Source of the DNA: an archaeon
GTDB lineage: Archaea; Nanobdellota; Nanobdellia; Pacearchaeales; GW2011-AR1
Direction of reading: 5' to 3'
Length of the DNA stretch: 64,000 bases
Assembly (NCBI GenBank): GCA_018651925.1
Contig: JABIDC010000009.1
Span: 16,403 to 80,402 of the forward strand
The first letter of the stretch is position 1, and every line of letters begins with the position of its first letter. Below the pieces are notes generated by a model. The model saw nothing but the letters and a program-made list of their open reading frames with translations, was not told the DNA's origin and made no database searches. A program made the translations under genes and the position numbers. Positions 5,208 to 28,971 of the stretch are shown here, in pieces.

Positions 5208-5211
5208 TTAA

Positions 5212-8984: not shown

Positions 8985-9110
8985 GTCAAAAACAACAGTT
9001 AAGAATTTATAAATTTATTTTAAATTTCTCCTTGAAATAAAACGAAAAGTAGAAATTTTTTTCTAAATGAAGATGTTTTAACATCGAAACATTCAGAAAA
9101 ATAGTTTTAA

Positions 9111-11075: not shown

Positions 11076-11924
11076 TCAAAAAAACCAATTGAAAAATTGA
11101 ATAAAATTAAAGAAATAACTAATTGCAAGGAAAACAAAAGAAATTAAAAAAACTGGTGCAAAAGCAATCCCATTACGGATTTCAATAAACTTATGATGTT
11201 TTTTTATTAAGGCTATATCCGCTTTAGTCAAACCATCCCAACTAGATTTTATAATTTTCTTTCCTACACAAAGATTCTTAACTAACCAATCTCCCTCAAT
11301 TAAATTTTTCGTTTTAACCTTGCGAATCATACAATGCTCATCAATTGTTTTAGAGTAAACATAAAGGTAAGGAAGGATAAAAATTAAAACTCCCAGGATG
11401 AAAAGATATGAATCAATTAATCCCAAAATCATAATAACTATTCCGCAAAGATTTCCAAGAACAATTAACAATTTAGATTTAGAAAAAACTTTTGGAAAAC
11501 CTTTTTTAAATTCCTTAGAATATCTTGTTGCCAAGATTATACTTGCAAAAAATCCATAAATTGCCCCAACACATAAAAACAAAAGGAAAAAGAAAATAAA
11601 AAATTTCACATTAATAATAAAATCTCTCGAAAAAGGCAAAATGGCTCCTAGAGCAATCATTAATTTTGCATCTCCTCCTGCGAAAAAATGAGCATAATAC
11701 ATTAAATTACCCAATATAAAAAAAATCCCCAAACCAATTAATCCCTGATAAAATAAGGCAAAGTTAACATCAAAAAAAAGACCATAAAAGAATCTAAAAG
11801 CAATTGCAAAAATCGCAAGAGAAAAAACCAACCAATTAGAAATTTCAGTAGTTTTAAAATCCTGGATAGACGCAAAAACTAAAAACAAAAATGCTAAACC
11901 AACTAAAAAAATAATTTCAAACAT
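11076..11924 (-). CDS. A24-family prepilin/preflagellin peptidase (FlaK/PibD/EppA-like)
   Basis: It is a polytopic membrane protein carrying the two catalytic-Asp contexts ASIQDFKTTEI and FFAGGDAKLMIALG. It is the last gene of the pilus-like cluster. Confidence 0.75.
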   Translation of the reverse strand: MFEIIFLVGLAFLFLVFASIQDFKTTEISNWLVFSLAIFAIAFRFFYGLFFDVNFALFYQGLIGLGIFFILGNLMYYAHFFAGGDAKLMIALGAILPFSRDFIINVKFFIFFFLLFLCVGAIYGFFASIILATRYSKEFKKGFPKVFSKSKLLIVLGNLCGIVIMILGLIDSYLFILGVLIFILPYLYVYSKTIDEHCMIRKVKTKNLIEGDWLVKNLCVGKKIIKSSWDGLTKADIALIKKHHKFIEIRNGIAFAPVFLISFVFLAISYFFNFIQFFNWFF

Positions 11925-11925
11925 T

Positions 11926-12039
11926 CTAAGCTTTCACTTCAGTTCCGCGAAACTTTCCTCCTTTTTTGTAAGGATGTTTCTTCTTCTCTTTACGCTTATC
12001 CTTTCTCTTATTTCTTTTTTCAGAATTCACATTAGCCAT
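11926..12039 (-). CDS. Candidate 37-aa highly basic peptide (not in ORF track)
   Basis: The hand translation is MANVNSEKRNKRKDKRKEKKKHPYKKGGKFRGTEVKA. Its stop lies 1 nt from the peptidase start codon. No homolog was recognised. Confidence 0.3.
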   Translation of the reverse strand: MANVNSEKRNKRKDKRKEKKKHPYKKGGKFRGTEVKA

Positions 12040-12077
12040 TTTTTCTTATCTCCAAAAAGAAAAGCAATTTAAGGAAC

Positions 12078-12419
12078 TTAACACAATCCAGGACAAGGCT
12101 TTATGCCATATTTCTCATATGCTTGTTCAGTAGAAAAAAATTGACAAGTTCCTGCAATTTCTTTCATATTCGCGTCAGGCAAATCATCTGCTTTCAAGGT
12201 TCTATTATAACTACAAAAATCGTAAGTTCTTGAAGTTATACAAGCAGTGTCACAAGCATCAGCAATTGTGTTCACATTATTTGCAGATTTAATCCATGGA
12301 ACAATTTGATCCCATCCGGCAGTAAATCCCGCAATTAAAATTGCTAAAATCAAAACACCTAAAACAATTAAGATAATTGCATTGGTACTAAGACCTTGAC
12401 CTCTCTTATTTTTAATCAT
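12078..12419 (-). CDS. Type IV pilin-like protein (class III signal peptide), Cys-rich globular part
   Basis: The N-terminus MIKNKRGQGLSTNAIILIVLGVLILAILIAG has a basic stretch, then G, then a hydrophobic helix. The C-terminal part contains 7 Cys. Confidence 0.65.
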   Translation of the reverse strand: MIKNKRGQGLSTNAIILIVLGVLILAILIAGFTAGWDQIVPWIKSANNVNTIADACDTACITSRTYDFCSYNRTLKADDLPDANMKEIAGTCQFFSTEQAYEKYGIKPCPGLC

Positions 12420-12450
12420 AAAATAAAAACACTTTAATTATTTATAAACA

Positions 12451-12759
12451 TTACCTTAAAGGATATTCTATAGAAAAAGCTAATTTATCTTCTTGCCAAA
12501 AAAAACTTTTACTTCGAATATCTTCTTGATAAAAAACCTCTTCCCCATTTGAACCAATTTGAGTATCAATACGAGAATTTTTATCTAAAAAATAATTTTC
12601 AACTTGGGAATTTAATTTAGTCATCAAACCAACTCCCACGAAGGAATCCTTAACATAACTTGAACTTGCAAAAAAAGTTAGAAGTGCAAGGGTACAAATA
12701 ACGAAAACCCCGATCACCAAAATTACAATAGATATCTCGCCACGACGATTAAAATTCAT
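12451..12759 (-). CDS. Type IV pilin-like protein (class III signal peptide)
   Basis: The N-terminus is MNFNRRGEISIVILVIGVFVICTLALL. It overlaps the upstream gene by 4 nt. Confidence 0.65.
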   Translation of the reverse strand: MNFNRRGEISIVILVIGVFVICTLALLTFFASSSYVKDSFVGVGLMTKLNSQVENYFLDKNSRIDTQIGSNGEEVFYQEDIRSKSFFWQEDKLAFSIEYPLR

Positions 12760-13019
12760 TTAATTTCCTCCTTTACCCAAGAATCAATTTCATTTTTATT
12801 TTCATCATTTACCAGATAAGCAATTTTTGTTTTTTCATAAAAATAATTGACATTTTCATCCACATCATCAATTAACAAAGATTTGGCACCAGTTTCAATT
12901 TTATTTGCCTTCCCCAAAACTCCTGAAGCATAAACAAAAACAACAAGCAAAATTACAATTATCACCGTCGCCACAACCCAAGTCATTGCATCACTCAACT
13001 GCCCTTTTTTATTTAACAT
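12756..13019 (-). CDS. Type IV pilin-like protein (class III signal peptide)
   Basis: The N-terminus is MLNKKGQLSDAMTWVVATVIIVILLVVFV. It overlaps both neighbouring genes. Confidence 0.6.
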   Translation of the reverse strand: MLNKKGQLSDAMTWVVATVIIVILLVVFVYASGVLGKANKIETGAKSLLIDDVDENVNYFYEKTKIAYLVNDENKNEIDSWVKEEIK

Positions 13020-13518
13020 TTAATTCCTCCTTTCCGATCACGCTAGTAACCTCAATTAAATATTGTTCATTATTCTTTGTAGAATAAAAACGATTCTTAT
13101 CACAGAAAGCTAAAGTCTCATAAGTTTTATCTTCCTGCAAAATACAATTAGAAATAAAATTTAAATTTCCATAGTCAAAAGCAAACAAACTTTTTTTAGA
13201 TAAATCAAAAAATTCTATCTTAACATAATATTCCTCATCTAAAGATTCAACTTGGAAATTTAAAGCACATTCTTCCAGAAAGATTTCAGTAAAATTTTCA
13301 TTAAATTCATCTCCATCAAAAATTTCGGTATTGATTATCCCCCCATAAGAAACACAATCTGCAATTTTTTGAGAAAGCAAATTTGATTCAACTTCTCGAA
13401 CATCATAAGGATGGCCATAAAAAGAATTAACCATTGAATAAATCCCTCCTGCAACTAAAAAAAGAATTACAAACCAATAAACAGACATCAATTTTTCCGC
13501 ACCCCGATTATTTTTCAT
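13009..13518 (-). CDS. Type IV pilin-like protein (class III signal peptide)
   Basis: The N-terminus is MKNNRGAEKLMSVYWFVILFLVAGGIY. It overlaps its neighbours by 11 nt on each side. Confidence 0.55.
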   Translation of the reverse strand: MKNNRGAEKLMSVYWFVILFLVAGGIYSMVNSFYGHPYDVREVESNLLSQKIADCVSYGGIINTEIFDGDEFNENFTEIFLEECALNFQVESLDEEYYVKIEFFDLSKKSLFAFDYGNLNFISNCILQEDKTYETLAFCDKNRFYSTKNNEQYLIEVTSVIGKEELNVK

Positions 13519-13894
13519 TTACAACAAAAACGTATAGCCCCTCCGCTTTATCCTTATAAAAATCAACATCCACTTCATTAAAAAAGGAATAAGAGTATCC
13601 CCCATTTTTACTAAGTTTAATTGTGACGAGATTATTATCTATTCTCATCATTTGTTCCACATTATTTTCTCTAGCCAACTCGATTCCTTTTTCCATATTT
13701 AATTTAATTAAAGCTCCAGGTTTTGCAGAATCAATCAACAATGCAATCTGCTTGGCATAACTTTCTTCTAAAACAATTGCTCCACTTCCTTGCTTTAATA
13801 AAAATAAAGTTAATATTGAAAGAAATATTAAATTCAACATTATAAAAATCAAATTTTCAACTAAAATCTCCCCACGTCTCCCCATAAAAAACAA
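13508..13894 (-). CDS. Type IV pilin-like protein (class III signal peptide)
   Basis: The N-terminus is (MFF)MGRRGEILVENLIFIMLNLIFLSILTLFLL. The likely start is the Met at 13885. Confidence 0.65.
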   Translation of the reverse strand: MFFMGRRGEILVENLIFIMLNLIFLSILTLFLLKQGSGAIVLEESYAKQIALLIDSAKPGALIKLNMEKGIELARENNVEQMMRIDNNLVTIKLSKNGGYSYSFFNEVDVDFYKDKAEGLYVFVVNEK

Positions 13895-13925
13895 AACTAA
13901 AGATAATTAATAAACCTAACTAAAA

Positions 13926-14915
13926 TCAAGAATGAGTAACAATCTCTTCACAATTAAGACTATTAAATTTATCAGAATCAACTTCTAAAATTGTAGGAGC
14001 CATAAACTGATTATCTATTCCTTGGCCTTCTACTTCAATTGCCGCAATCTCCACATCATGTGCATCTGCCCAAATTCCTCCCCCCGTGCTCAAAATCCCT
14101 AAAACAAGAATTCCTGCAACTGCATTCAAACCAGGAGTAAGAACTCCCACCACTCCTCCAACAATAACTCCTCCAACTGCAACCCACTTCCAATTATTTG
14201 TCTCACTTGTAATCCCCATCACCACAAAATATTGTTCCCCAATCTTAATTTTCCCAAAAGTCGCTCCAGTTCCATATTCTTTCAAAGCCTCTTGCCTCAA
14301 AGTATTCAAATCTTTTTCCCCAAAAATATACTCCGAATAAGTCATTTTATTGTTCGACATATTTTTTTTCGACAAATAATCATATAGTTCATCCTTACTA
14401 ATCTCAAAATCAATACCCGGAACTTCACTCAAACTATCATCAAAAACAATTTGGGAACAAATTGAACAATAGTTATTTTTTGTCGCATCTTTTCCCACAT
14501 AATCAATTTTTCCCTCTCCAAACATCCACCAACAATCCGCCATTTCATTTGATAGAATATCATATATTTCTTCTTTGGTTTCAACCTTCTCTACTTTTGG
14601 GGAGGTCATTCCCTCACAAGTTCCATCCTCGGTAATACAAAGATATTTTCGTTGACAATTTAATCTGGCAGCTTCACTCGAAACAATACTTCCCCCCTTC
14701 ATTGCCACGGAATTTCTACAAACCTCTGCATCTGTCTCTTGTCCAAAGTCTAATAGCCCAAAGAAAAAAAGCAAAACCAAAAAGCTGGCAATTGCTATAA
14801 CTAACATTACAATTTGTTGAGTAGTTAATTCTCCACGATTTTTCATTACATTATCCCCATTTTTGTTAACCCAAGGTAAAGCCCATATAAAACAACTCCA
14901 AAAAAGACTATCCAA
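13926..14915 (-). CDS. Large type IV pilin-like protein (class III signal peptide, Cys-rich, C-terminal Gly/Val-rich hydrophobic segment)
   Basis: The internal Met at 14846 gives MKNRGELTTQQIVMLVIAIASFLVLLFFFGLL, which is the probable true start. Multiple Cys pairs are present, and there is a second hydrophobic stretch VAVGGVIVGGVVGVLTPGLNAVAGILVLGILS. Confidence 0.6.
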   Translation of the reverse strand: MDSLFWSCFIWALPWVNKNGDNVMKNRGELTTQQIVMLVIAIASFLVLLFFFGLLDFGQETDAEVCRNSVAMKGGSIVSSEAARLNCQRKYLCITEDGTCEGMTSPKVEKVETKEEIYDILSNEMADCWWMFGEGKIDYVGKDATKNNYCSICSQIVFDDSLSEVPGIDFEISKDELYDYLSKKNMSNNKMTYSEYIFGEKDLNTLRQEALKEYGTGATFGKIKIGEQYFVVMGITSETNNWKWVAVGGVIVGGVVGVLTPGLNAVAGILVLGILSTGGGIWADAHDVEIAAIEVEGQGIDNQFMAPTILEVDSDKFNSLNCEEIVTHS

Positions 14916-14943
14916 GCCACATATTTAATTACCATTTCGATTG

Positions 14944-15462
14944 TCATTTTTCCAAAACAGAAACCTGTCCCCCCTTTTCAGAAATTTCAATACTAGTCAA
15001 TTCTTTTTTTATTTTAATTTCATCAAATTCAATTAAACCATCAACAATTAAACAAACTCCTTTCTTATTACATTCATCTAACTGATTTTTCCAAAACTGA
15101 ACTTTTGGGACATCATCACATAAACAAAGACAACTTTTTCCAGAACAAGAATTCGGACGATCTCTCCGAACAAAAGAAAAAATACTCCATCCTTTCGGAG
15201 TCAAGGCATCAACTTCTCCACCACCCGCTTTCACAACTAGATCAATTTGTTCAGCAGTATTTTGTGCAGCAATAAAACTTTCATCATAAATTTTTGCAAA
15301 ATATAGTGAAGTTAAAAAGAAAACTAAAAAACCAATTGCAATCACAGATAAAATTATTTTCAAAGTTTCATTAACTAAAATTTCCCCTCTCTTTCGATTC
15401 AACCATTCTCTAACGGAAGAATGAGAAATTTTTTTAAAAATTTCTTCTTGATTATTTCTCAT
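14944..15462 (-). CDS. Type IV pilin-like protein (class III signal peptide), Cys-rich
   Basis: NRKRGEILVNETLKIILSVIAIGFLVFFL follows a 22-aa leader. A CSGKSCLCLCDD...CNKKGVC cluster is also present. Confidence 0.55.
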   Translation of the reverse strand: MRNNQEEIFKKISHSSVREWLNRKRGEILVNETLKIILSVIAIGFLVFFLTSLYFAKIYDESFIAAQNTAEQIDLVVKAGGGEVDALTPKGWSIFSFVRRDRPNSCSGKSCLCLCDDVPKVQFWKNQLDECNKKGVCLIVDGLIEFDEIKIKKELTSIEISEKGGQVSVLEK

Positions 15463-15623
15463 TTTAATAAACTCAAAACCAACTCAGTTGAGCCCCCAGT
15501 AAAATTCCTAAAAAAATCCAAAACAGTGTCCTTAAAAAAGAAACCAATTCCAATAATCACCACAACCACCACTAAAATTCCCAAGATAATTTTAATTAAT
15601 TGCCCTATAGCTAACTCTGCCAT
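15459..15623 (-). CDS. Small membrane protein (54 aa; not in ORF track)
   Basis: The hand translation is MAELAIGQLIKIILGILVVVVVIIGIGFFFKDTVLDFFRNFTGGSTELVLSLLK. Its TGA stop overlaps the next gene's ATG (ATGA). Confidence 0.5.
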   Translation of the reverse strand: MAELAIGQLIKIILGILVVVVVIIGIGFFFKDTVLDFFRNFTGGSTELVLSLLK

Positions 15624-15775
15624 TATCTGCCCCTAAATAGATTTTTAATTTGGTCGATTAAAGAAACACCTTCTTCTCTTAGAAAGAAAATAAAAATCAT
15701 CATAATTGCCAAAACAGCAATTCCAATTAAAAGCCACGGCAAATAATCTGCAACAATTCCTTTTTTAGATTTCAT
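15623..15775 (-). CDS. Small membrane protein with pilin-like N-terminus (50 aa; not in ORF track)
   Basis: The hand translation is MKSKKGIVADYLPWLLIGIAVLAIMMIFIFFLREEGVSLIDQIKNLFRGR. Its TAA overlaps the next ATG by 1 nt. Confidence 0.5.
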   Translation of the reverse strand: MKSKKGIVADYLPWLLIGIAVLAIMMIFIFFLREEGVSLIDQIKNLFRGR

Positions 15776-15820
15776 CCACCTCTTTAACATAAAATCAAAT
15801 ACAAAAAAGAATTAATAAAC

Positions 15821-17986
15821 TTAACTAAACATTCCCCCAAGAACTACTGAAGTTAAACCCACAAGTGCAAGAGTAGAAATTAATGCCACTACAAAATAAA
15901 GGACAATCCCAATCTTTAAATTTTTACCAATTTTATTTACCCTTACCAAATCATCCTTTCCCGAATCAATTGTAACCAAAGTTCCAGTTAAAATAAAAAT
16001 TATTTGAATCAAATAAATTCCAACCGCTAATTGCAAGAAATATGGGGGAATCATTGCTAGCACATCAAAAATATTCATAATATTTTCCACTCCTGCAATT
16101 CCAATATCTTGGCCAGCATCTAAAGAAGTTTGCATTTTTCCTAAAATCGAAGTAATCATAACAGATAATCCAACAACGACTCCAGAAAGTAAAGGTGCCA
16201 AAAAAGTCATATTACTTTTCATATCTGAAATTACTTCTGCTAACAAATCATTAAGCCTTACAGAAATCTTATTAATATTTTTAACATACTCCGAAATACT
16301 CATTAAACTCACTGCAGCAATTTTCAATCCTTTTTTAGAAGATTCAAGAAAAATTCTCATTGAAGTCGCAATTAATTGAGAAGGATAATAAATTATTGCT
16401 CCACGATTTTTATCAAAAATTGCTTTCTCTACACTCATTCCCGCATTCCGAATATTAAAATCAATTTTTCTAAAAAAATCCTCAATATTCAATCCGCGAG
16501 AAGACTCTGCAACTTTTCCAAAAACTAATTCCGGAGGAACCCCATTTCCAACACGATTTCCTAATTGGAATAAAGAAGAATTAAATTCCTTTTCTAGATT
16601 TCGGGTTTTCTCTCGCTCAACAATTAAATCTTTAGTTTTAGCATTATATGCAATGATAAAGAAAAAAGCTAACCCCAGAGGGAAAAACATTCCAAGCAAA
16701 GTTGCACCTAACCCAAAAGGCCCAACAGTTTGACCAGCATTATCTATAAATCCGAAAAACATCTCATTCTCTCCCATAAATCCTAAACCAAGTTCCCCAA
16801 AAGAATAATCGCTTTGCAAACCCATTAATTCCGGAATTGGAGTATACCCGAAAATCAGAGGCAAAATTCCTAACAAAAATAATGGAAAACAAATCACAAA
16901 AGCTTTTGTAAATACCGAATTATCTTTGTACTTAGGATACAAAGGATTACGTTCAAGAAGATCAGTTTCCCCATGACCCCCTGGACGAAGAAGTAAAACT
17001 TTGTCTGTTAAATAATAAACAAAAAAAGGAACAATCATATTAAATAAAATAACAACATGAACCCAAGTAACCAATCCTCCCAACATTGAAGATGCAAGAG
17101 GGATCATTGCTAAAGACAATGTTGGCAAAACAACCCCTAACATATAAACATTTGTCAAGGGACTTCTAACAGAATGACTAAACTTAAGCATCTTATCATA
17201 AACTCCATCAAGAACAACCTGTAAAGATTTTTCCAACGTAGCAATTCTCCGATTTTGGTCTGGTTCAAATAAACTTCCTTCAATCAAATGAAAAGCCTCA
17301 ACAAACTCAGAAGAATAGTCTCTCCAAGTTTCCAAATAATTATCTAAACTTTCCTTAATTGTAGAAAATTTTCCAATTTCAACATTATAAAATACTTTTT
17401 TAAAATCCAAACTTAAAGGATACTGTAAATGATCTGAAGCAAAAGCAATTGCTTTTTCTAAATTAGGAGTATGCCTCATATAAACTACAACATACAAAAT
17501 AGCTGGGACCATCTGACTAGAAGCCTTAAGTCTCCAAGAATTAGCAAGTCTCTCTGGATAAGCATTAATAAAATAATACAAGAACATGGATAAAATTAAA
17601 GAAAGAAAGAAAAACAAAAAAGGAAAAGCTCCATTAATAAATAACGCTGCTAAAGAAGCAAACAACCCAATTAAAAAAACCGCTAAAAAACTCATCATCC
17701 CCAATGAAAGGGCTTGCCAAGGTTCTAAGTCCAAATGTGCAATTTCCAAAGATCTCCGAACTTTTACTGCATCTTTTTCAGCAACCTTTATTTTAATTAT
17801 GCTTCCTAAACTTTTACACCATCTTTCATATCTAGAAAGTTCAGAACTCATTTCTCCCCGAAACTTTGAATAATCTTGACTATAATTAGAATCACTCCCT
17901 CCGCCATTCATTTGGCTTTCAATTTTGCCCCCATACTTTTGCAAAACTTCTTCTACAGTCGGTTTTTTATTAGAACCCATATGCAC
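15821..17986 (-). CDS. Polytopic membrane protein (721 aa, about 10 TM), candidate pilus platform protein (FlaJ/TadC/T2SSF-like)
   Basis: The call rests on position between the pilins and the secretion ATPase, and on an architecture of TM pairs separated by two soluble helical regions. The T2SSF assignment is by context, not by a recognised motif. Confidence 0.5.
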   Translation of the reverse strand: MHMGSNKKPTVEEVLQKYGGKIESQMNGGGSDSNYSQDYSKFRGEMSSELSRYERWCKSLGSIIKIKVAEKDAVKVRRSLEIAHLDLEPWQALSLGMMSFLAVFLIGLFASLAALFINGAFPFLFFFLSLILSMFLYYFINAYPERLANSWRLKASSQMVPAILYVVVYMRHTPNLEKAIAFASDHLQYPLSLDFKKVFYNVEIGKFSTIKESLDNYLETWRDYSSEFVEAFHLIEGSLFEPDQNRRIATLEKSLQVVLDGVYDKMLKFSHSVRSPLTNVYMLGVVLPTLSLAMIPLASSMLGGLVTWVHVVILFNMIVPFFVYYLTDKVLLLRPGGHGETDLLERNPLYPKYKDNSVFTKAFVICFPLFLLGILPLIFGYTPIPELMGLQSDYSFGELGLGFMGENEMFFGFIDNAGQTVGPFGLGATLLGMFFPLGLAFFFIIAYNAKTKDLIVEREKTRNLEKEFNSSLFQLGNRVGNGVPPELVFGKVAESSRGLNIEDFFRKIDFNIRNAGMSVEKAIFDKNRGAIIYYPSQLIATSMRIFLESSKKGLKIAAVSLMSISEYVKNINKISVRLNDLLAEVISDMKSNMTFLAPLLSGVVVGLSVMITSILGKMQTSLDAGQDIGIAGVENIMNIFDVLAMIPPYFLQLAVGIYLIQIIFILTGTLVTIDSGKDDLVRVNKIGKNLKIGIVLYFVVALISTLALVGLTSVVLGGMFS

Positions 17987-18029
17987 CTCTATAAAAAATA
18001 GAAAAACTAATTAATAAATCTTTAGAAAA

Positions 18030-21000
18030 TTAATTTTTATCTAAATTACTTTTAAAAGAATTATATTTATTTTTCCTCTCAAAAAAATGAATCAAAAGAA
18101 AAATAATTACAATTAAAATTGCAAAAGAAATTCCAATTAAAAAGTATTTGAAAAAATTATTTTTTTCTCCATTAACCATTCTAGCGATAATTGCAACTTC
18201 CCCTAAAGAATCTACTTCAGAAGAGAAATAAACAAAAATTTCATCACGGCTGATTTCACTTGTTAAATATTCCTTCGAATGAGACAAAGAATATAATGTT
18301 ATATCTGTCGCATTCAATAAATTCACTTCTATCCAAGAAAGAGGAACTTTGAAATACACTTTCCCCCGAACAAATCCAGAATCTGAACTCAAATTAAAAA
18401 TCTCGTAATTAATTATTTCCGAATCTAAGAAATAATCTGATTCATTTAAATCTCCAATTTCGAAGTTAAATCCTGTTCCAACATGCTCAATTTCTGCAGA
18501 ATAAACAGAGCCCCCCTCAAAAGAAAAATTACTTTGAATAGAATCTAGCTCCTCCCCCAAATAAAGATCTCCATCATCTCCAGAATAGGGGGAATCATCT
18601 CCTCCATTAGGACTCCCCGAACCAGGACTATAATCATCTGGAGTATCTCCCTCTGGCTCTGGTTCCCCACAATCTGAATCATTCAAATCAATAAATTCAT
18701 CACAATCATTATCTAAACCATCTTCACAAAGTTCAAAAACTCCTTCCAAAGGAGAACAATCACTCACTTGCGATCCTTCCTCGCAGATTAAAATCCCCTT
18801 ATTTACGCATGACCCGATTCCACAAGTTGTTTCATTTCCAAACCAAGATTCATCAATTCCATCTTCAGTAGATTCATCGCAATCATTATCTAAACCATCA
18901 CAAAGTTCTGGTGAGCCAAGAACTCCTGGAGCACAAGTATCTAATTGAACCCCTGCTTCACAATTAAAAACCCCTATATTTGAGCAAGCCCCAATTCCAC
19001 AATTTGTTTCATTTCCAAACCAAGATTCATCAATTCCATCAGTTGTTTCAGAATCACAATCATTATCTAAATCATCACAAATTTCCTCTTCTCCCGGATT
19101 AATATTTGAATTTTCATCATTACAATCTCCATGTCCAATAAATCCAATCTCTCCACTACATCCTCCCGCCTCCAAATAATATCCATCTTCATCTCCATCT
19201 GTACAGGTAGGAATTGTTTCAGTATCATAATATTTAAAGTCAGAAATAATTTCTTCCCCTGCACCATTAACATAAGAACAAGCCCAATTAAAAGCCCCAT
19301 TCAATCCTCCAATATTAAAAGTTTTAGAAGCAGTAATTCCAGTTAAGCCACATTGAGCAGTAGAATACCTTGCAGGAAAATTATTAACTAAATTTAATGC
19401 ATCCACTCCGCAAGAAGAAACTGGATCAAAGGAAAGATCGTCTGTAATCAAAACTAAATCTGGATAAGTCCAATATCCATCCACCGCAGCATCTATAATT
19501 TGGATATTTTTAGTTCCAGAAGTAGTTGAAACGTAACTTAATCCATTTTCCCAAGTAAATCCTCCGCTTCCATCCCCAAAAATTGGGCTCATATAATTTT
19601 CAATTCCAACTTGCCAAGTCCGATCACTCCCCCCAACATCACTTCTTGCAAAAACTGAATAAGTTCCAGAATCTAAAAATAAATTATAAGTCATATTTGA
19701 GCTTCCATCAGTTCCTTCTTCACTGATTGCATGTCCTAATGCGCTTGCAGTATTTTCAACAAAGACATTATTATCTTCACAAGATTCTAAACCAAAACAA
19801 ACATCCCATTCAGATTCAGAAAAATTAAATTTCTCTGCTTCTAAAAAATAATATTTATTAGATAAAAGTTCCTCTGTTTCCAGGATTTGCTCAACCCCAT
19901 AAGTTTCTTTTACTAAAGAAATACTCTGAATTCCTGTTGGATCCTCAATATCACAAATAAATTCCACAGTAGTTTCTCCCCCAGCACCATCAAAAGGAGA
20001 AGAAGTTATTTCTGGTACACATTGATCATCAAACCCATTACAATTTTCATCGATGGAATTCCCACAATTTAACAAAGGACTTTCAGCTTGTTGGCCAAGA
20101 AAAGGATTACAAGTTTGAGGAACACCGGCAACACAATTTTGAATAGTATTTGTGCAGATCCCTTCTCCACAAGTAGTTTCTCCTAAATATTCGTCAGTGT
20201 TATAATCACAATCATTATCTATTCCATCACAAATTTCCTCGCTTGGAACAATTGCTCCAACACACACACTCCAAATTCCACTCTCGCAAGTTTGTATTCC
20301 TTGTGTACATTGCCCTTCAGAAATTCCACAAGCCCTAGTTTCCCCATTAGTAGAACAACTTCCTCCAGTTCCCAAGGCAAAATTAAAATCAGTTTCTTGG
20401 GTAATTGTATACTCTCCAACTTCTTCAATGGTATTTTCATATTGAACATAAAATAGATGGGGTGTCATGGATGTCCTATTATGAACTCCCGAAGATCTCA
20501 TATCTCCTTCCTCATAATATTCTGTAACAATTAATCTCGCTTCTCCTACAACATTCGTTATTTCGGAAATTGTTTCCGGCAAAGAACTTGTTGAAATTGC
20601 AGTCACAATCGCATTTTCTAAAGGAGTTCCAGAAGCATCAGTAACCCTCACATTCACATACCATTGCTTAGAAAGATCATAAAGAGAAGTGTCTGTACTT
20701 GCGGTAAAAAAGTAAGCATCTTCTTCAAAACCATTCTCAAAATGATTATTTATCAACCTAATTCCAGGAGCTGTTGCACGATAATATCCAAATCTAATTG
20801 CAGATTCTGGCATTGAAGGCGAATAATAGGGATTGTCTACTCTTACAAAAGTATTATTTTCTAACCACTGATTTGCAGAATCTCCATAAAAAGAATTTAT
20901 CCATAATGCCTTATCATTTGTTTCAATATAATTATCTTTGAACAAAGGGTTTCCCTCATTATTATATGCATCTCCTCCAATATAAAATGCAAATACTGGA

Positions 21001-22655
21001 CTATCATCTCCTGCAGAAGTTTTTGTAACATAATATTTATTATTCCAAATCTGATTATTTTCTCCAGCAGCAGAATAAAATATTCCAGTTGTTACAGGCA
21101 TACAATTGTCATAAGCAGTTTCAAAATCTCTCCCTTCAATGTAAAAAGTATTATTTATTACATGATTATCATGGTTTGATCCACTTCCATAATCATTCAT
21201 TCTTATTGCATTCGTTGAATAATCTTCATTAATATATTCAACATTACAAGTAGCAGTTCGAACATAAAAAGTATTGTTTGTTATTTTATACCCATTACCT
21301 GAATAAACTAAAATACCACTTCCTTCAATTGGATCAAAAACATTATTATGGATAACTGGATTTATTGCACCACTATGAATGATCGCATAATGATTTGTTG
21401 ACTGAGCATTATTTCGGATATAATTGTATGAAACATTTGTTCCAACTCCCCCTAAACGAATTACTCCTTGCCCCCCAATCAAAGTATTATTATATAATAG
21501 CCCACTTCCCATAACAACATTTTCTTCAATGCTATTTTCTCTAGCAAAATACCATGGCATACTAACTTCTAAATGATTATTGTAAACATCTCCCCCCGTT
21601 CTTACCGTCCTAGATTGCATCCCTTGAACTCTAACATCCAAATCATGAAATTTTCCCATTGGAGCAGCAGAAGTTCTAAGAGCATAAGAATTTAAATTTT
21701 CATTTCCAATACGAATATTTCCATTCATAACTTCTAAAACTGGACGCCGATAATTATAATCTCCTAAATCTCCAGAATCCCAAGAACCTTGAAAATCTTG
21801 ACCAGGATAATTAACTTCTAATTGGCCCCCATAATTATATGAACTTCCACCAATAACTCCATAATCAGAATTAGGAACAATTCCAGTTCTATCAATATAT
21901 GCATAACCTTGTGTGGTTATTCTCATCTTATATTGCCCAGTATTATTTGCAAGAAATTTACAACCGAAAGATTTTCCCCGAAAAAAGCCCTCAGAAGTTT
22001 CTGAACAAATTAAATTATTATTTGCATCATATACATCAATTGTTAAGTCAGCAGTTTGAGCGCGGCCAAAAGTGGCATAGGCCACATATTCTCTTGGTGC
22101 AATAGGTAAATTAACATAAGAAGATTCTATACTCAGTGCATCTGCAGTATATAAAACAAAGTCCCCATGCATTGGTTGATAATAGGAAGTATTTCTTGCT
22201 TCAACAGTTCCAGAAAGAACATTCCAATTAATAGGATTATTTCCAGACCATAATTCAAAACCATTATTTGAAAGAGTTTGATAATCTGCTCCAGAATAAG
22301 TAAGAGTATATCCATTTAAGTCAATTGTAGTTGTAAATTTCTCTTCAGGTTGACCAACAAAACGTGTTACAATGCAAGATCTATCACAATTTAAATCTCC
22401 AGATAAAATAAAATAATAATCTGCTCCAGAAGTATCATCCAATACATAAACATCCCATTCAGAAAGATACTCGTAATTTGCACCAGATTGCCCAGGAACA
22501 ATTTCTTCACAATTATCAACAGAAATACCTGCACAATTAATGTCTCCGATTGCATATCCCGTGAGATTTCCGAATCCAATATAAGAAAGAAAGAACCCAA
22601 TTAATAAAAGAGCAACAACTGCAAATAAAAAATAACTCTTAATCCCCTCATTCAT
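18030..22655 (-). CDS. Giant (1541 aa) membrane-anchored surface/adhesin-like protein
   Basis: It has an N-terminal signal-anchor and a region of repeated NN(T/V/H)F/NNxY turns typical of parallel beta-helix (PbH1) repeats. A CarboxypepD_reg-like segment (VNVRVTDASGTPLENAIVTA) follows. At least six Cys-rich CDGxDNDCD modules of the MopE-type putative metal-binding kind come next, then an acidic Pro/Gly linker, a PGF-pre-PGF-like segment (VYFKVPLSWIEVN...GEVAIIA) and a C-terminal TM helix. Confidence 0.75.
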   Translation of the reverse strand: MNEGIKSYFLFAVVALLLIGFFLSYIGFGNLTGYAIGDINCAGISVDNCEEIVPGQSGANYEYLSEWDVYVLDDTSGADYYFILSGDLNCDRSCIVTRFVGQPEEKFTTTIDLNGYTLTYSGADYQTLSNNGFELWSGNNPINWNVLSGTVEARNTSYYQPMHGDFVLYTADALSIESSYVNLPIAPREYVAYATFGRAQTADLTIDVYDANNNLICSETSEGFFRGKSFGCKFLANNTGQYKMRITTQGYAYIDRTGIVPNSDYGVIGGSSYNYGGQLEVNYPGQDFQGSWDSGDLGDYNYRRPVLEVMNGNIRIGNENLNSYALRTSAAPMGKFHDLDVRVQGMQSRTVRTGGDVYNNHLEVSMPWYFARENSIEENVVMGSGLLYNNTLIGGQGVIRLGGVGTNVSYNYIRNNAQSTNHYAIIHSGAINPVIHNNVFDPIEGSGILVYSGNGYKITNNTFYVRTATCNVEYINEDYSTNAIRMNDYGSGSNHDNHVINNTFYIEGRDFETAYDNCMPVTTGIFYSAAGENNQIWNNKYYVTKTSAGDDSPVFAFYIGGDAYNNEGNPLFKDNYIETNDKALWINSFYGDSANQWLENNTFVRVDNPYYSPSMPESAIRFGYYRATAPGIRLINNHFENGFEEDAYFFTASTDTSLYDLSKQWYVNVRVTDASGTPLENAIVTAISTSSLPETISEITNVVGEARLIVTEYYEEGDMRSSGVHNRTSMTPHLFYVQYENTIEEVGEYTITQETDFNFALGTGGSCSTNGETRACGISEGQCTQGIQTCESGIWSVCVGAIVPSEEICDGIDNDCDYNTDEYLGETTCGEGICTNTIQNCVAGVPQTCNPFLGQQAESPLLNCGNSIDENCNGFDDQCVPEITSSPFDGAGGETTVEFICDIEDPTGIQSISLVKETYGVEQILETEELLSNKYYFLEAEKFNFSESEWDVCFGLESCEDNNVFVENTASALGHAISEEGTDGSSNMTYNLFLDSGTYSVFARSDVGGSDRTWQVGIENYMSPIFGDGSGGFTWENGLSYVSTTSGTKNIQIIDAAVDGYWTYPDLVLITDDLSFDPVSSCGVDALNLVNNFPARYSTAQCGLTGITASKTFNIGGLNGAFNWACSYVNGAGEEIISDFKYYDTETIPTCTDGDEDGYYLEAGGCSGEIGFIGHGDCNDENSNINPGEEEICDDLDNDCDSETTDGIDESWFGNETNCGIGACSNIGVFNCEAGVQLDTCAPGVLGSPELCDGLDNDCDESTEDGIDESWFGNETTCGIGSCVNKGILICEEGSQVSDCSPLEGVFELCEDGLDNDCDEFIDLNDSDCGEPEPEGDTPDDYSPGSGSPNGGDDSPYSGDDGDLYLGEELDSIQSNFSFEGGSVYSAEIEHVGTGFNFEIGDLNESDYFLDSEIINYEIFNLSSDSGFVRGKVYFKVPLSWIEVNLLNATDITLYSLSHSKEYLTSEISRDEIFVYFSSEVDSLGEVAIIARMVNGEKNNFFKYFLIGISFAILIVIIFLLIHFFERKNKYNSFKSNLDKN
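18660..19100 (-). repeat. Internal tandem duplication (about 180 nt / 60 aa period) encoding CDxLDNDCD...WFGNET.CGIG.C modules inside the giant gene
   Basis: On the plus strand, ccaaaccaagattcatcaattccatc...tcatcacaaa recurs near 18838 and 19018. The protein repeats are ICDDLDNDCDSETTDGIDESWFGNETNCGIGAC and LCDGLDNDCDESTEDGIDESWFGNETTCGIGSC, plus a truncated third copy. The bounds are approximate. Confidence 0.7.
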
Positions 22656-22692
22656 AAAAAAATAATATCTTTTACCTTAATAAAGTTTTATA

Positions 22693-23334
22693 TCACATTC
22701 TTCTTGCTTCATTTTTCTTCTTAGCAAGATAAGAGCCAATCAAAAAAACTAAAATTGCTAGGACAACTATAGAAATTAAAATTAAAAAAGCAATTTTAAC
22801 AGAAGAATAATCTTTTTCCACTGAATTATCCACGATAATTGCAATTTCTCCAAAATAATTTAAAATAGAATTATAATAAACAAATTCTTTGTCCCTTAAA
22901 ACTTCCCAAGTAGGATTTTTCCTTTCATCTAATATCGAAAACAAAACAATTTTTGAAGAATCAATTTTATTCTCCTGGAATCAACTGAGAGGGATTTTAA
23001 AATAAATTCTATTTTCTACAGATTCTCCAAAAGATTCAACTTTAAACAAATCATAAACAAATATTTCTTGAAAAGGATAATTCACTTCTTCTACTCCAGA
23101 AAGATTCAGATCAAAATCCTTTTCTCCAGAAATTTTGATTAAATAAATTGAATTATTTGGAAAACGAAAATCTATTAAAGAAATATTATTTTCTTCTAAA
23201 TTTAAACTTTTTTCAAAAGGAGCCTCAGGACCAAAAATTACCCCTCCTGTGAATGAAAAAGAATTTTTAACAAAGAATAAAATAATACCAATTACCAAAA
23301 ACCCCAAGAGAAAATAAAACTTATTAACTTTCAT
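22693..23334 (-). pseudogene. Small membrane-anchored PGF-pre-PGF-like protein, paralogous to the giant protein's C-terminus, interrupted by one in-frame TGA (22981-22983)
   Basis: ORFs 22981..23334 and 22693..22944 are in the same frame and are separated only by the TGA. The downstream piece has no ATG (the track starts it at TTG). The read-through sequence YFKIPLS*FQEN...GEIAIIV aligns with the giant protein's YFKVPLSWIEVN...GEVAIIA. Confidence 0.65.
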
Positions 23335-23379
23335 ATTGAAAAAAATAATTTAATGTTAATAAAAGTAACCCAAATTCAA

Positions 23380-24390
23380 TTAAAGTTTTGCCACAAGAAT
23401 TTTCAAATTAACTAAACTAATTCCCCCTAAGAAAAGAGAATAAAAATAATAAATTATTCTTTGCAAAAATCCGACTAATAAAGCCAAAGGAGGAGGAACC
23501 CCCATGACAGTATACAGCAAAGTCATAATGCTCTCCACAATCCCCATCCCTCCCGGAACAGGAGAAAGATTACCAATAATTTGACCTAATGTAAAAACAA
23601 TAATAATTGAAAGGAAATTTAAATGGCCCCCAAATGCAAAAAACAAAAAGTATGCCGTGAAAAAATTCCCTGCCCAAAACAAAATTCCAAATAAAACCCC
23701 AATGAAAAAAGTTTTTTTATTCTTCAAAATTTTCTCAAAGGACCCATAAAATGAATGAAATTTAACCCGAAGATAATCAATGAAAATTTCTTCTGTCTCA
23801 AATCTTCTTTTAAGAAATTTCAACCAATAAACTTTTCTAAAAAAAGTTTTCCAATTAGAACGAGACTTTTGAAAAATAATATAAAAAACAATAAAACTGG
23901 ACAAAAATACAAAACAAAGAACTCCAAACAAAATCCACTTTAAACTACTTGGAATCGGCACATAGAAAAAAACAAAACATATTGAAAATAAAACAAACAG
24001 AAATAAGACCAGCATCCGGAAAAAACTATCTGCTATAACTCCTCCAAAAACTTCACTTTTAGATTTACCATATTTTGAAGCGAGATAATGTGCTCGAAAA
24101 GGTTCTCCTCCAACACCCGCGGCAGGAGTAACGGTATTAAAAAATGCCCCTGCCAAAGTAACCTTCATAAAATAAAAAAAATCAAATTTTAAAAAACCTG
24201 CAAAAATATTTTTCCAATTAAAAACCGTTGAAACAAAAGTCAATCCCGTTGCCAAAATAGCTAGAAGAAACCAACCAATTTTAGCTTGAGAAATTAATAA
24301 ATAAACTTCATAAAAATTAATATCCTTTAAAACAAAGAGTAATAAAAAAAAAAGAATTAAAATTCCAAGAACATTTTTTATCTTTCCCAT
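23380..24390 (-). CDS. Polytopic membrane protein, flippase-like / LPG-synthase-TM (UPF0104) family
   Basis: It has about 8 TM helices. The N-terminal pattern (K..l.iliLffll..l..i.f.ev...i..a...wlllai) and the GGEPFR-type loop (GVGGEPFRAHYL) are typical of that family. Confidence 0.55.
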   Translation of the reverse strand: MGKIKNVLGILILFFLLLFVLKDINFYEVYLLISQAKIGWFLLAILATGLTFVSTVFNWKNIFAGFLKFDFFYFMKVTLAGAFFNTVTPAAGVGGEPFRAHYLASKYGKSKSEVFGGVIADSFFRMLVLFLFVLFSICFVFFYVPIPSSLKWILFGVLCFVFLSSFIVFYIIFQKSRSNWKTFFRKVYWLKFLKRRFETEEIFIDYLRVKFHSFYGSFEKILKNKKTFFIGVLFGILFWAGNFFTAYFLFFAFGGHLNFLSIIIVFTLGQIIGNLSPVPGGMGIVESIMTLLYTVMGVPPPLALLVGFLQRIIYYFYSLFLGGISLVNLKILVAKL

Positions 24391-24442
24391 AAAATACCAA
24401 AAATAAAAATCCTTAATAAAGGTTTTCTTATTTTATCTAAAT

Positions 24443-26728
24443 TTAAAACTTTTTAGATTTTATCTTTTCATTCAACCATTTTTGCCACTCGGGGAAAACT
24501 CTTTCGCTAGTAGGAAGCCCAATTTCTTGAATAATATTATCTGAAATCTTATGAAAGGAATCATTTGCAATAACACTAAAACCTGCTTCAAGAATTTTAT
24601 CATTCTTAATTTTTTTAGAAACCTCTACAAGCTCATTTTTTATTTTTGAACGAAGCAAAATATTATCATAAACTGCATCCCAATCTCCTGCCCAACCTTT
24701 TACATTAGCAGCAATATCTTTTATTATTTCACTATCCCCATTAATTAAATCGTCTGTGGGTTCTAGCTCATCTTTCTCCACATTATATTTCATTAAATCA
24801 ACAAAACCTTTTTCTTCCATCGGATCTTCTGTCCAATGCTTTCGAATTTCAGATAATTGTAAAAGTCTTCTCCACGAATGCATTCCATCAGGAGACTTAA
24901 TTGGATTTGCAACAGCAATAATGTCTGTTGCCTTAAAACTGGTTTTAGGAACACCCAAATCATTTACCACCCGATCATAAACCCCATAAGGTGATGCTCC
25001 ATGAATTGTTCCTGCAACAACATTCGCAAGAGCTCCAACACGCATAGCTTCATACAATGCTTTTGCTTCTTCCGAACGAACTTCACCAAGAATCAAAGCA
25101 GAATCTCCTAAACGCAAACTTGTCCTAATTCCATCCTCTGCAGAAACCTCTGCAGTTGTTTTCAATAAAGCAGAACGAACCTTCATCCTTAAAATATCAT
25201 AATTCAAATTTCTTAAGGCAGTAACAGGCAATTCCAATGTATCCTCAATTACAATCACTCTATTCTTAGGGATAATTTCTAACATCAAACTTCCCAACAA
25301 AGAAGTTTTTCCTGAACTTCTAGTCCCAGCAACAAGCATCGTTCTTGCTCCATCAATTAAAAAACTCAATAGTCCTGCAGATAAAGGGTTAACCATTTTA
25401 TTTTTTATAAATAAAGGGAGAGTCCAAGGATCTTCCCTATGTCTTCTGATTGAATAAGCAAGACCATCGGGACTCAAAGGTTCTTGAATAATTGCAACTC
25501 TTGCACTAATCTTCCCAATTTCCAATTGAGTATCTAAAATCGGATTTGCTTCATTCAGCGGCCTACCAGAAATCATTCTAAATTTCGCAGCCCAAGAATC
25601 TGCATCTTCTGCACTAGGTAAAATATTTGTTGAACATTCTCCGTGAATTCCGTGGCGAACAAAAATATTCACTTTTGGAATGGGTGCATTTAATGAAATG
25701 TCCTGAAGATGTTTATCTTGTAACAAAACTTCTAATAATCCAAAACCAATTGTATGCCTAACTAAAATTATTGAAAGATTATTTAATTCCGAATAACTCA
25801 AACGAATACTTTTTGAATTTGCAAGATCCGAAATCAAATCTTTTGAAATATTAAAAAATACTTGTCTAATTCTATCTGTATCGGTAAATTCCTTTGCTTT
25901 TGGTTGGTGTTCCATCAAAGTTCCTCTCGCTAAATTCAAAAGAGAATTAAAATCCTCACTCAAAGAATTCTCAGGAGGACTTAAATGATAAATAAGTTTT
26001 GCTTCATCTTTTTTCTTTAGAATTGTTACTAAAGATTTATCATAATCTTTACCAATTTCATATTGATCAATAATCTCAGAATCTCGAGGCAAATCAAAAA
26101 CTAACCGAGTAAAAGTAAAATTCGGGATTACATCTGGCTTAAAGATCAAACGATAAACTTCCCTGTCTCCCGTGGAATAATCTGAAAGATAAGGCAAAAT
26201 CAAAGAAATCAATTTAGTTTTTTCAAATAAAGAGATTAATTTTTCTAAATAGTAAATATAATTTGCAAAATCAGATTTATTTTCTTCGCCAGCTTTTGTT
26301 GAATCAATTTTTGCTTCAATTAAAAATTTTCTAAGTTCATGATATGCATAGATTGGATCTTTTTTTAATACGCTCAAAAAAGAAAACATTGAATTGTATC
26401 TTTTTGAAAACATTGCTTCATTCGAACTAGCTAATTTTTCATGAGATAAAATCCTCTCTTGTTTTAGCAAAAAAGTGTAAAAATTTGCAACCTCTAAAAG
26501 ATAATTTGTTTCTTTCATATCATAATTATAATTTTTCTGTTGAACAAAAACAATTCTCGAAACATTCTGATTTTCAATTAACAAATCGACAACTCTTTCC
26601 ATAATTTCTGGCATCTCAACTAAACTCGGAATAAAGGGCGCACCTACAAAATTAACATACATCACATCTTCTCCACCTTCTCTCGAAACCTCGTAATCAT
26701 ACAATGGAGCATCCTTCCCAAATTGCAT
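24443..26728 (-). CDS. Type II/IV secretion system ATPase (FlaI/VirB11/GspE family) with long N-terminal extension (761 aa)
   Basis: Motifs include Walker A VAGTRSSGKTSLLGSL, VIVIEDTLELP, the Walker B/His-box region LILGEVRSEEAKALYEAMRVGA...GTIHG, and LQDISLNAP in the upstream region. Confidence 0.85.
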   Translation of the reverse strand: MQFGKDAPLYDYEVSREGGEDVMYVNFVGAPFIPSLVEMPEIMERVVDLLIENQNVSRIVFVQQKNYNYDMKETNYLLEVANFYTFLLKQERILSHEKLASSNEAMFSKRYNSMFSFLSVLKKDPIYAYHELRKFLIEAKIDSTKAGEENKSDFANYIYYLEKLISLFEKTKLISLILPYLSDYSTGDREVYRLIFKPDVIPNFTFTRLVFDLPRDSEIIDQYEIGKDYDKSLVTILKKKDEAKLIYHLSPPENSLSEDFNSLLNLARGTLMEHQPKAKEFTDTDRIRQVFFNISKDLISDLANSKSIRLSYSELNNLSIILVRHTIGFGLLEVLLQDKHLQDISLNAPIPKVNIFVRHGIHGECSTNILPSAEDADSWAAKFRMISGRPLNEANPILDTQLEIGKISARVAIIQEPLSPDGLAYSIRRHREDPWTLPLFIKNKMVNPLSAGLLSFLIDGARTMLVAGTRSSGKTSLLGSLMLEIIPKNRVIVIEDTLELPVTALRNLNYDILRMKVRSALLKTTAEVSAEDGIRTSLRLGDSALILGEVRSEEAKALYEAMRVGALANVVAGTIHGASPYGVYDRVVNDLGVPKTSFKATDIIAVANPIKSPDGMHSWRRLLQLSEIRKHWTEDPMEEKGFVDLMKYNVEKDELEPTDDLINGDSEIIKDIAANVKGWAGDWDAVYDNILLRSKIKNELVEVSKKIKNDKILEAGFSVIANDSFHKISDNIIQEIGLPTSERVFPEWQKWLNEKIKSKKF

Positions 26729-27158: not shown

Positions 27159-27172
27159 AACAATAAGATAAT

Positions 27173-27769: not shown

Positions 27770-27796
27770 AAATTTTTTATTTATTAAAAAATAATT

Positions 27797-28396: not shown

Positions 28397-28430
28397 ATCA
28401 ATATTAAATTAAATATCTTTAAATATTTAA

Positions 28431-28967: not shown

Positions 28968-28971
28968 AAAA

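Follow-up and report, generated by a model that had tools for sequence, protein, structure and literature searches.

Gene content of the locus

The DNA considered here is a stretch of 64,000 nucleotides from a Pacearchaeales archaeon (assembly GCA_018651925.1, contig JABIDC010000009.1, positions 16,403 to 80,402 of the forward strand), hereafter the window, and our subject is a run of 18 co-directional genes on its minus strand, from position 26728 down to 11076 as read from the open reading frames (ORFs), that probably represents a type IV filament (TFF) locus. The window has a GC content of ~30% and is archaeal, as judged by its genes for RadA, EF-1beta, RPA with DUF2240, PolD and Cdc6 and by an intron-containing tRNA. 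Spacers within the run range from an 11-nt overlap to 52 nt, and each sizeable ORF that is not inside a larger one lies on the minus strand. All ORFs listed in an earlier note on this DNA, which had described the region as a single-strand pilus-like supercluster, are present on the minus strand at the positions it gave.

The first gene in the direction of transcription (24443..26728, minus strand) encodes a 761-residue assembly ATPase of the T2SSE/FlaI/CpaF superfamily with an N-terminal extension of ~300 residues. Its assignment, which bears out an initial reading as a FlaI/VirB11-type ATPase at the level of the T2SSE superfamily, is based on Pfam T2SSE (PF00437, 3.8e-14, 52.6 bits vs. a cut-off of 24.9), a Walker A motif (GTRSSGKT) at residue 468 and matches in the PDB to afGspE (2oap, 8e-28), CpaF (8rkd, 5e-25) and FlaI (4ii7, 3e-17). 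The NCBIfam FlaI and TadA models scored 130 and 122 bits, respectively, both far under their equivalog cut-offs (550 for FlaI). At the other end of the run, a 282-residue protein (11076..11924, minus strand) is a class III signal (prepilin) peptidase of family A24, as had been proposed, scoring above the cut-off for Peptidase_A24 (PF01478, 3.6e-11, 43.9 bits vs. 26.5) and under the equivalog cut-off of the NCBIfam FlaK model (34 bits vs. 330). Its candidate catalytic aspartates, picked from the sequence, are D22 and D85 (in AGGD), which we take to correspond to the catalytic aspartates of FlaK and PibD.

The assembly platform was the most difficult component to assign. The 721-residue product of the gene at 15821..17986 on the minus strand (719 residues if translated from the ATG at 17980) has ~9 transmembrane helices and had no direct match in Pfam, NCBIfam or the PDB sequences, and a profile of its close homologs returned nothing from the PDB sequences at E≤10. 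A profile built from 107 diverse family members had Vibrio cholerae EpsF (2vmb) as its top PDB sequence at a weak E-value of 0.027; in this alignment the window motif LFQLGNR..G.PPE pairs with QLATLVQSGMPLEE and a G.P.E.A motif is aligned. Among 64 distant full-length relatives (23–32% identical to the window platform and with E≤1e-71 to the family profile), 36 matched T2SSF (PF00482, best 1.1e-15) and six matched Spore_III_AB, a result paralleled by Foldseek, which also finds SpoIIIAB beside GspF-type domains. The AlphaFold2 model of the platform (predicted local distance difference test, pLDDT, 66.5; predicted TM-score, pTM, 0.63) gave local Foldseek matches to the cytoplasmic domains of EpsF, OutF and PilC-N, plus SpoIIIAB, with probabilities of 0.9–1.0 and TM-scores of 0.61–0.71. 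An hhalign comparison of the N-terminal half with the C-terminal half was weak (E 0.029, probability 1.7%) and aligned a P.LE.A motif, suggestive of two T2SSF motifs. The family is large (>2800 matches in 90% clusters, with 1171 representatives at 50% identity), and some distant relatives are half-length, the gene being split there. Taken together, these data point to a divergent, fused FlaJ/TadBC-like platform with two T2SSF-like cytoplasmic domains, in agreement with the platform role first suggested for it, the homology being transitive and structural with no direct match at a curated threshold.

Eight genes between those for the platform and the peptidase encode prepilin-like proteins, in which class III signals were called by a simple rule (a short, basic leader whose last residues are [KR]G/A, and a hydrophobic helix after it). 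All of the following are on the minus strand, and the fractions are of orthologs with a class III-like N-terminus. The 55-residue p55 (15623..15790, KSKKG|IVADYLPWLL) has no globular domain, is Flp/EpdE-like, and is the most conserved of the small proteins (61% identity), its orthologs carrying [KR][KR]G[IV][IV]S[ED]YLPW in 53 of 57 loci. It is followed by proteins of 172 residues (14944..15462, ...NRKRG|EILVNETLK, with KKG|FLLAEETLK in orthologs; 45/49), 306 residues with eight cysteines (13926..14846, MKNRG|ELTTQQIV; 58/61), 125 residues (13508..13885, MGRRG|EILVENL; 54/57, mean identity 50%), 169 residues (13009..13518, MKNNRG|AEKLMSVYWF; 49/53), 87 residues (12756..13019, MLNKKG|QLSDAMTW; 14/17), 102 residues (12451..12759, MNFNRRG|EISIVIL; 32/36) and 113 residues with six invariant cysteines (12078..12419, KRG|QGLSTNAIILIVLG; 42/43). 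The N-terminus of the last, KRGQGLSTNAIILIVLG, is near-invariant in 57 sequences, and its AlphaFold2 model (pLDDT 86.8) consists of an N-terminal helix and a small head. Across the eight families (p55 and the 172-, 306-, 125/128-, 169-, 87-, 102- and 113-residue proteins) a [KR][KR]G-type leader and a hydrophobic helix are kept in 82–98% of orthologs from up to 61 species, which upholds the earlier idea that the small proteins are A24 substrates, as predicted ones. That idea had covered seven proteins and is here extended to p55, which has such an N-terminus too; in addition, an ORF taken as 329 residues long has its true start at MKNRGE and a length of 306 residues.

Three further small proteins are encoded among these genes. 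The 54-residue p54 (15459..15623, minus strand; orthologs M(A/S)ELTI.QLIKIILG...) and the 33-residue p33 (14846..14947, minus strand; MN.D..IKYL.WI.FF...), the latter missing from the first gene list, are conserved single-pass membrane peptides; p33 has 29 orthologs and is likewise 33 residues long in four loci of relatives (L001, L003, P0004 and L087). None of the p54 (0/29) or p33 orthologs has a class III-like N-terminus. The last pilin gene and the peptidase gene are separated by an ORF for a very basic peptide of 37 residues (11926..12039, minus strand; KRNKRKDKRKEKKKHPYKKGGKFR), which has a 43-residue ortholog in L003 and a 37-residue gene in P0004, was matched by tblastn in six of the 48 loci described below, and has no family match and no evident link to a pilus.

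The run appears to be composed of several transcription units and not one operon. A TTTAT[TA]AA box (TTTATTAA) is located on the minus strand exactly 29–30 nt 5' of six start codons, those of the flippase-like gene described below (box at 24420, 30 nt), the small paralog (23363) and the giant gene (22684, 29 nt) that follow it, and the genes for p55 (15819, 29 nt), the 125-residue protein (13914, 29 nt) and the 113-residue protein (12448, 29 nt), and the platform gene has one 32–38 nt 5' of its start. GGAGG occurs upstream of the overlapping internal genes, including that of the 87-residue protein, where it resembles a Shine-Dalgarno sequence. Leaderless first genes and Shine-Dalgarno-led internal genes are the usual archaeal pattern, and the box spacing is consistent with leaderless mRNAs. 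As TATA boxes precede individual genes, the supercluster would consist of several units, with the giant gene having its own promoter: one for the ATPase, one for the platform, a p55-p54-172-p33-306 unit, an overlapping four-gene 125-169-87-102 unit, and a unit for the 113-residue protein that may also include the 37-residue peptide and the A24 peptidase, with leaderless starts 29–30 nt 3' of the TATA boxes.

Surface-protein genes between the ATPase and the platform

To place the locus among its relatives we drew on a scan of one genome per species, which found the platform in at least 508 species and from which 80 loci were analyzed; conservation was counted by tblastn in the 48 loci whose downstream sequence was long enough. 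The platform was matched in all 48 (mean identity 66%), the ATPase in 41 (71%), the A24 peptidase in 43 (53%), p55 in 37 and each of the larger pilin families in 29–44. The mean identities of the ATPase and the platform exceed that of EF-1beta (48%). In loci L001–L003, whose platforms are 67–72% identical to that of the window, genes for the ATPase, platform, two small peptides, pilins, A24 peptidase, HIT, EF-1beta, RPA, YdjM and RadA are found in the same order as in the window. Core synteny extends to L004 and to at least 60 genomes at the species level. Upstream of the ATPase gene (26817–29253) the window has two divergent genes (113 and 198 residues), followed on the pilus strand by genes for proteins of 199 and 178 residues and a PRC-barrel protein; this order is kept in the relatives examined, and the two divergent genes had tblastn matches in 37 of the 48 loci.

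Three genes separate the ATPase from the platform in the window, all on the minus strand. The one nearest the ATPase (23380..24390) encodes a 336-residue, polytopic, flippase-like membrane protein of the LPG_synthase_TM family, a reading confirmed by Pfam (PF03706, 4.2e-45) and NCBIfam (TIGR00374, 145 bits vs. a cut-off of 43). The other two form a block of 5.3 kb (~18030..23367) that was delimited by comparison with relatives. Its larger gene (18030..22655) encodes a giant surface protein of 1541 residues, with 46 cysteines and no class III signal, consisting of an N-terminal hydrophobic segment, a beta-helix-like region, an Ig-like domain, MopE-type cysteine repeats, an acidic linker, a PGF-pre-PGF-like domain and a C-terminal transmembrane anchor. 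The original description of a beta-helix/Cys-repeat surface protein is supported by four Cu-binding_MopE matches (Pfam, 2.8e-16) and by Beta_helix (PF13229) in homologs of the giant; a Big_1 match was weak, and PGF_pre_PGF (TIGR04213) scored 23.5 bits, under its cut-off of 28. The C-terminus has a transmembrane segment and a basic tail but no PGF motif, and so differs from a PGF-CTERM/archaeosortase A substrate.

The smaller gene of the block (22693..23334) is a paralog of the C-terminal module of the giant, with a signal or anchor segment, a PGF-pre-PGF-like domain and a transmembrane anchor. What had been noticed as an interrupted PGF-pre-PGF-like protein is one gene, split into ORFs of 117 and 83 residues by an in-frame TGA at 22981-22983. 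By BLASTP it matches residues 1376–1440 and 1454–1490 of the giant, with the TGA opposite Trp1441, and the two are also related as a DNA-level repeat (75%). Recoding of TGA to Trp was ruled out, as TGA ends several conserved genes in this genome and is thus an ordinary stop, pointing to a TGG-to-TGA nonsense mutation. The small paralog is likely a pseudogene, a decaying duplicate.

Neither gene of the block is shared with relatives at this locus. Both are absent from all 60 species-level loci that hold ATPase and platform, and a weak match to the C-terminal domain of the giant was found by tblastn in one of the 48 loci. L001–L003 have neither the giant gene nor the flippase gene, and relatives with platforms 83% (P0004) and 74% (L004/L007) identical to that of the window have the flippase alone between ATPase and platform. 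Contigs L089–L091, from three assemblies, encode a platform 96% identical to that of the window, and the 148 nt preceding that gene run from the 3' end of the flippase gene through ~10 nt into a platform promoter identical to window positions 17987-18036. That the flippase end abuts the platform promoter in a 96% relative indicates that the 5.3-kb block was inserted after the split from a very close relative. The giant protein has 16 database homologs, and the two closest beyond an identical copy (58 and 52% identity) are encoded beside genes for an rRNA methyltransferase, a DNA glycosylase and Fur, in neighborhoods that lack pilus genes. The giant gene and its paralog thus appear, by sequence comparison, to be a very recent lineage-specific insertion into a variable gap and not a built-in part of the machine. 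The earlier note had viewed the giant as a dedicated adhesin embedded in the pilus locus, and had added that its absence from this locus in related genomes would point to a recent insertion; that absence is what the close relatives display, and the giant's own promoter and the non-pilus contexts of its closest homologs also contradict the embedded role.

Repeats within the block are limited to the 177-nt MopE repeats and the similarity between the paralogs, and a search for insertion sequence (IS)-like direct or inverted repeats bounding it found none. Assembly chimerism was considered for the giant gene and ruled out, as the same arrangement is present on five contigs of 50–200 kb. A homolog of the N-terminal half of the giant (50% identity) occurs in P0132 on a contig of 2.9 Mb, far above the size of a DPANN genome; horizontal transfer in either direction with an organism of host size, or misassembly, may explain this.

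The gap occupied by the block is the most variable junction of the neighborhood, with a length of 43 bp to 9.7 kb and a median of 734 bp among the loci, and the platform-p55 junction is the second most variable. The ATPase-platform gap may contain nothing, flippase-like genes, small transmembrane proteins, toxin-antitoxin (TA)-like pairs, large ORFs (among them a RecQ-type helicase, read from sequence only) or secreted Cys-rich proteins. Although the closest relatives have the flippase gene here, tblastn matched it in just seven of the 80 species loci, and it is accessory cargo of the variable slot and not a core component. Cys-rich secreted proteins of at least 200 residues occupy the ATPase-platform slot in eight of 59 species, always on the pilus strand; L014 and L060, where contigs end early, have them in their slots as well, and four further species have them in the platform-p55 slot, such that, over the slots on both sides of the platform, they occur in ~15–20% of species. 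Their families are unrelated (S8 subtilase with FG-GAP; Big_7 with Laminin_G_3 and InlB-B; Mucin2_WxxW; S8 with Beta_helix), and the protein of L014, encoded 60 bp upstream of the platform gene, has the same C-terminus as the giant, PGF-pre-PGF-like with a transmembrane segment. Genes for Cys-rich secreted proteins are more frequent in the slot (9/63) than in the ±10 kb flanks (2/597; Fisher p 1.8e-8), a biased null as the flanks are conserved housekeeping genes; over the rough background given by similar proteins elsewhere in the window (35822-37027 and 37952-39184) the excess is ~3-fold.

Two observations concern the cargo more generally. The two window proteins just mentioned and those of L009, L032, L061, L063, L070 and L076 share a motif immediately behind the signal peptide, ~VSAG-WF.DFW.K[IF][TS]G.A[VI], of which the giant and its small paralog have a reduced form, F.[FL]TG.[AV]I; the motif is not limited to the pilus slot. 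In L057 and L064 the slot (~3660-9930) holds three ORFs of 928, 516 and 644 residues that, from their sizes and N-termini alone, may be read as UvrA-UvrC-UvrB, and if that reading is correct the slot may take cargo unrelated to the cell surface.

Elsewhere in the window, a probable replication origin is located at 50170-52130. A Cdc6/Orc1 gene (50170-51381) adjoins those for PolD DP1/DP2 and is followed by a 750-bp gap of 26% GC, in which a perfect 27-nt inverted repeat (51436-51462 / 51725-51751) encloses 262 nt of AT-rich DNA; here the cumulative GC skew ceases falling and the strand bias of the genes shifts. A 107-nt tRNA at 63555-63661, matched by Rfam and not by ARAGORN, is consistent with an intron-containing archaeal tRNA and adjoins a 5S rRNA gene (63219-63334).

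Interpretation of the locus

We consider it likely that the region is the core TFF (pilus) locus of a Pacearchaeota/Woesearchaeota-type DPANN archaeon, interrupted by a recent insertion of surface-protein genes. The homology of the parts, the synteny, the absence of the insertion from relatives and the promoter spacing are directly supported, and filament formation, the choice of major subunit and an adhesive function are what we infer. By homology to the Tad, Epd and archaeal type IV pilus (T4P) systems, the A24 peptidase would cut the short basic leader after the conserved glycine of the eight prepilin-like proteins, and a hexameric ATPase would dock on the two cytoplasmic T2SSF-like domains of the platform and drive the processed subunits out of the membrane into a helical filament. 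The body of the filament would most likely be built from the Flp/EpdE-like p55, our candidate major pilin, or from the disulfide-rich 113-residue protein, the alternative candidate; the six remaining class III proteins may be minor, priming or tip subunits, and p54 and p33 would be conserved bitopic peptides beside the filament parts. In this lineage the ATPase-platform gap would have received a flippase-like gene first and the 5.3-kb block very recently, its giant gene and decayed paralog each bringing its own promoter. The giant itself is predicted to be a Sec-type, C-terminally membrane-anchored cell-surface protein, and a role as an adhesin is plausible.

Several points weigh against this interpretation. 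For this lineage the filament is a prediction from genes. No pilin candidate matches a pilin family of Pfam or NCBIfam (Pfam Class_IIIsignal, Pilin_N, Flp_Fap and N_methyl being covered), either with the window proteins at E≤1 or with ortholog N-termini at E≤10, and N_methyl appears in just two rows (E 0.56 and 8.6), both on residues 32–43, away from the N-terminal motif; the label "pilin" is taken from the N-terminal signature, its conservation and the gene context, and from these only. The model of the 113-residue protein found no meaningful structural neighbor in the PDB by Foldseek, and the platform has no direct Pfam match and a model of medium quality (pLDDT 66.5). Lastly, the enrichment of the slot could mean that its surface-protein cargo is not functionally neutral.

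This last point bears on how the variable gaps are explained, for which a permissive gap between two transcription units is our default; that variable surface proteins are functionally linked to the pilus locus is possible but unlikely. The opposing explanation is that the junctions on both sides of the platform gene make up a hypervariable site dedicated to cassettes, into which diverse Cys-rich secreted proteins (beta-helix/MopE, subtilase/FG-GAP, Ig/lectin and mucin-WxxW types, with adhesins, proteases and lectin-like proteins among them) are swapped to act with the pilus as exchangeable determinants of host specificity. They might, for instance, be strain-specific and displayed on the pilus or beside it, the giant being one such cassette. 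The number of species with such proteins, all on the pilus strand, and the excess over the flanks speak for it; the unrelated families in the slot suggest repeated independent gains, and other archaeal T4P loci are known to contain adhesin-like genes (PMC4858521). Yet the flank null is biased and the excess over the window background is ~3-fold only, the co-orientation fits a regional strand bias, the cargo carries Sec-type and not class III signals, >80% of species have no such protein in the slot, and the UvrABC- and RecQ-like ORFs (as read from sequence), TA-like pairs and small transmembrane proteins also found there are as expected for a permissive gap. Overall we regard a cassette site as unlikely; if it were true, it would be a genetically modular system of a pilus with a swappable adhesin, for the host range of an episymbiont. 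Much less credible is the model of the earlier note, in which a host-attachment apparatus of pilus and adhesin has the giant and its paralog as an integral module dedicated to it. The tight packing of co-directional genes between ATPase and platform would suit it, as would the L014 protein with the same C-terminal module, but the giant is lacking from the 96, 83 and 74% relatives and from 60 species loci, has its homologs elsewhere in other genomes and a promoter of its own, and its paralog is inactivated by a nonsense codon. We deem this model very unlikely.

The machine itself could also be something other than an adhesive surface pilus, such as a short pseudopilus or another TFF-derived device (for DNA or substrate uptake, secretion, a bindosome-like function or a cell-cell bridge to the host). 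The ATPase and platform are more conserved than EF-1beta, and the platform is encoded by >500 species of symbionts with reduced genomes, which suggests a central physiological function and not that of an accessory adhesin. The locus also has eight different class III proteins and one ATPase, a relative of CpaF, which is bifunctional; TFF systems that serve purposes other than pili are also known in archaea (10.64898/2026.04.22.720090). Conversely, Pfam and NCBIfam scans found no substrate-binding-protein domains in the class III proteins, and there are no ComEC-like or nuclease genes within the cluster. We judge such a device to be unlikely, while noting that sequence alone cannot separate an adhesive pilus from other TFF functions. 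An archaellum for motility, already set aside when the cluster was first described as pilus-like, is extremely improbable: FlaI and FlaK are the best NCBIfam models for the ATPase and the peptidase, but their scores (130 vs. 550 and 34 vs. 330) are far under the equivalog cut-offs, the ATPase is nearer to afGspE and CpaF than to FlaI in the PDB, and the cluster proteins scanned against Pfam and NCBIfam gave no FlaH/KaiC, FlaF/G or archaellin match, while all four TFF components are present.

The uncultured Pacearchaeota and related archaea are abundant, have reduced genomes and are believed to live in attachment to a host. On the interpretation that we prefer, a core TFF locus with a recent insertion, the exceptionally conserved locus that archaea of this type share is a filament locus, and its motor proteins exceed EF-1beta in conservation. 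Standard Pfam models do not see its platform and pilin families, and automated surveys may under-call the system. The corrected parts list has eight predicted class III substrates, three conserved micro-peptides and two candidates for the major pilin; the giant "adhesin" of the window genome is a very recent insertion and no design feature, and the gaps beside the platform gene are places where secreted Cys-rich proteins repeatedly gather.

Comparison with known systems

TFF loci in DPANN archaea are already present in published surveys, and PilY-like and other adhesins and S-layer-like proteins have been described in archaeal T4P loci (Makarova et al. 2016, PMC4858521; Sivabalasarma & Albers 2026, 10.64898/2026.04.22.720090). 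Neither the pilus nor a large surface protein within a pilus locus is therefore new in kind, and the view that adhesins are not part of the described archaeal pilus loci is contradicted by the same studies. With pilus-associated adhesins of the PilY1 type, known from bacterial T4aP, the giant shares its large size, a Sec-type signal, the lack of a class III signal, a gene inside a T4P locus and a proposed role in adhesion. It differs in having no PilY or DUF2341 match (DUF2341 proteins occur in methanococcal T4P loci, PMC4858521), in its C-terminal membrane anchor, by which it is predicted to be on the cell and not at the pilus tip, and in not being conserved with the locus.

The crenarchaeal adhesive pili Aap and Ups and the Bas bindosome have the same four core functions as the window locus (ATPase, platform, class III substrates and A24 peptidase). 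Their loci, however, are small, with one or two pilins, a shared PibD encoded elsewhere and the accessories AapX, UpsX and BasEF; the NCBIfam BasE model scored 66 bits vs. a cut-off of 1000.

Of the systems described so far, the Epd/System 1 pilus of Methanococcus maripaludis and the bacterial Tad/Flp pilus (CpaF/TadA, TadB/TadC, Flp and TadV) come closest. Epd/System 1, of archaeal T4P clade 1, is a multi-gene locus that has been reported in some DPANN (PMC4858521; 10.64898/2026.04.22.720090). It resembles the window locus in having one ATPase, a T2SSF-type platform, many different proteins with class III signals and an A24 peptidase of its own; the locus can also include large adhesin-like genes, and its short headless major pilin, EpdE, is resembled by p55 in size only. 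In contrast to Epd, which has two platform genes, the window has a single fused gene (720 residues) that is unseen by Pfam T2SSF, its ATPase has the ~300-residue N-terminal extension, and its pilins are outside known families. Glutamine at +1 is a feature of EppA substrates and is found in only the 113- and 87-residue proteins of the window. Compared with the Tad/Flp pilus, the window locus differs in its archaeal host, the lack of a secretin or outer-membrane parts and the fusion of the TadB/TadC equivalents. Flp pilins have a G/XXXXEY motif; p55 has no Pfam Flp_Fap match and its E/Y pair is one position nearer to the glycine, but it is likewise tiny (~45 residues when mature), and its G precedes x3-[ED]Y. 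The likeness to Tad/Flp extends to the motor and the peptidase, as the window ATPase is related to CpaF (5e-25), the platform has two T2SSF domains, and the A24 peptidase is without a recognizable methyltransferase domain.

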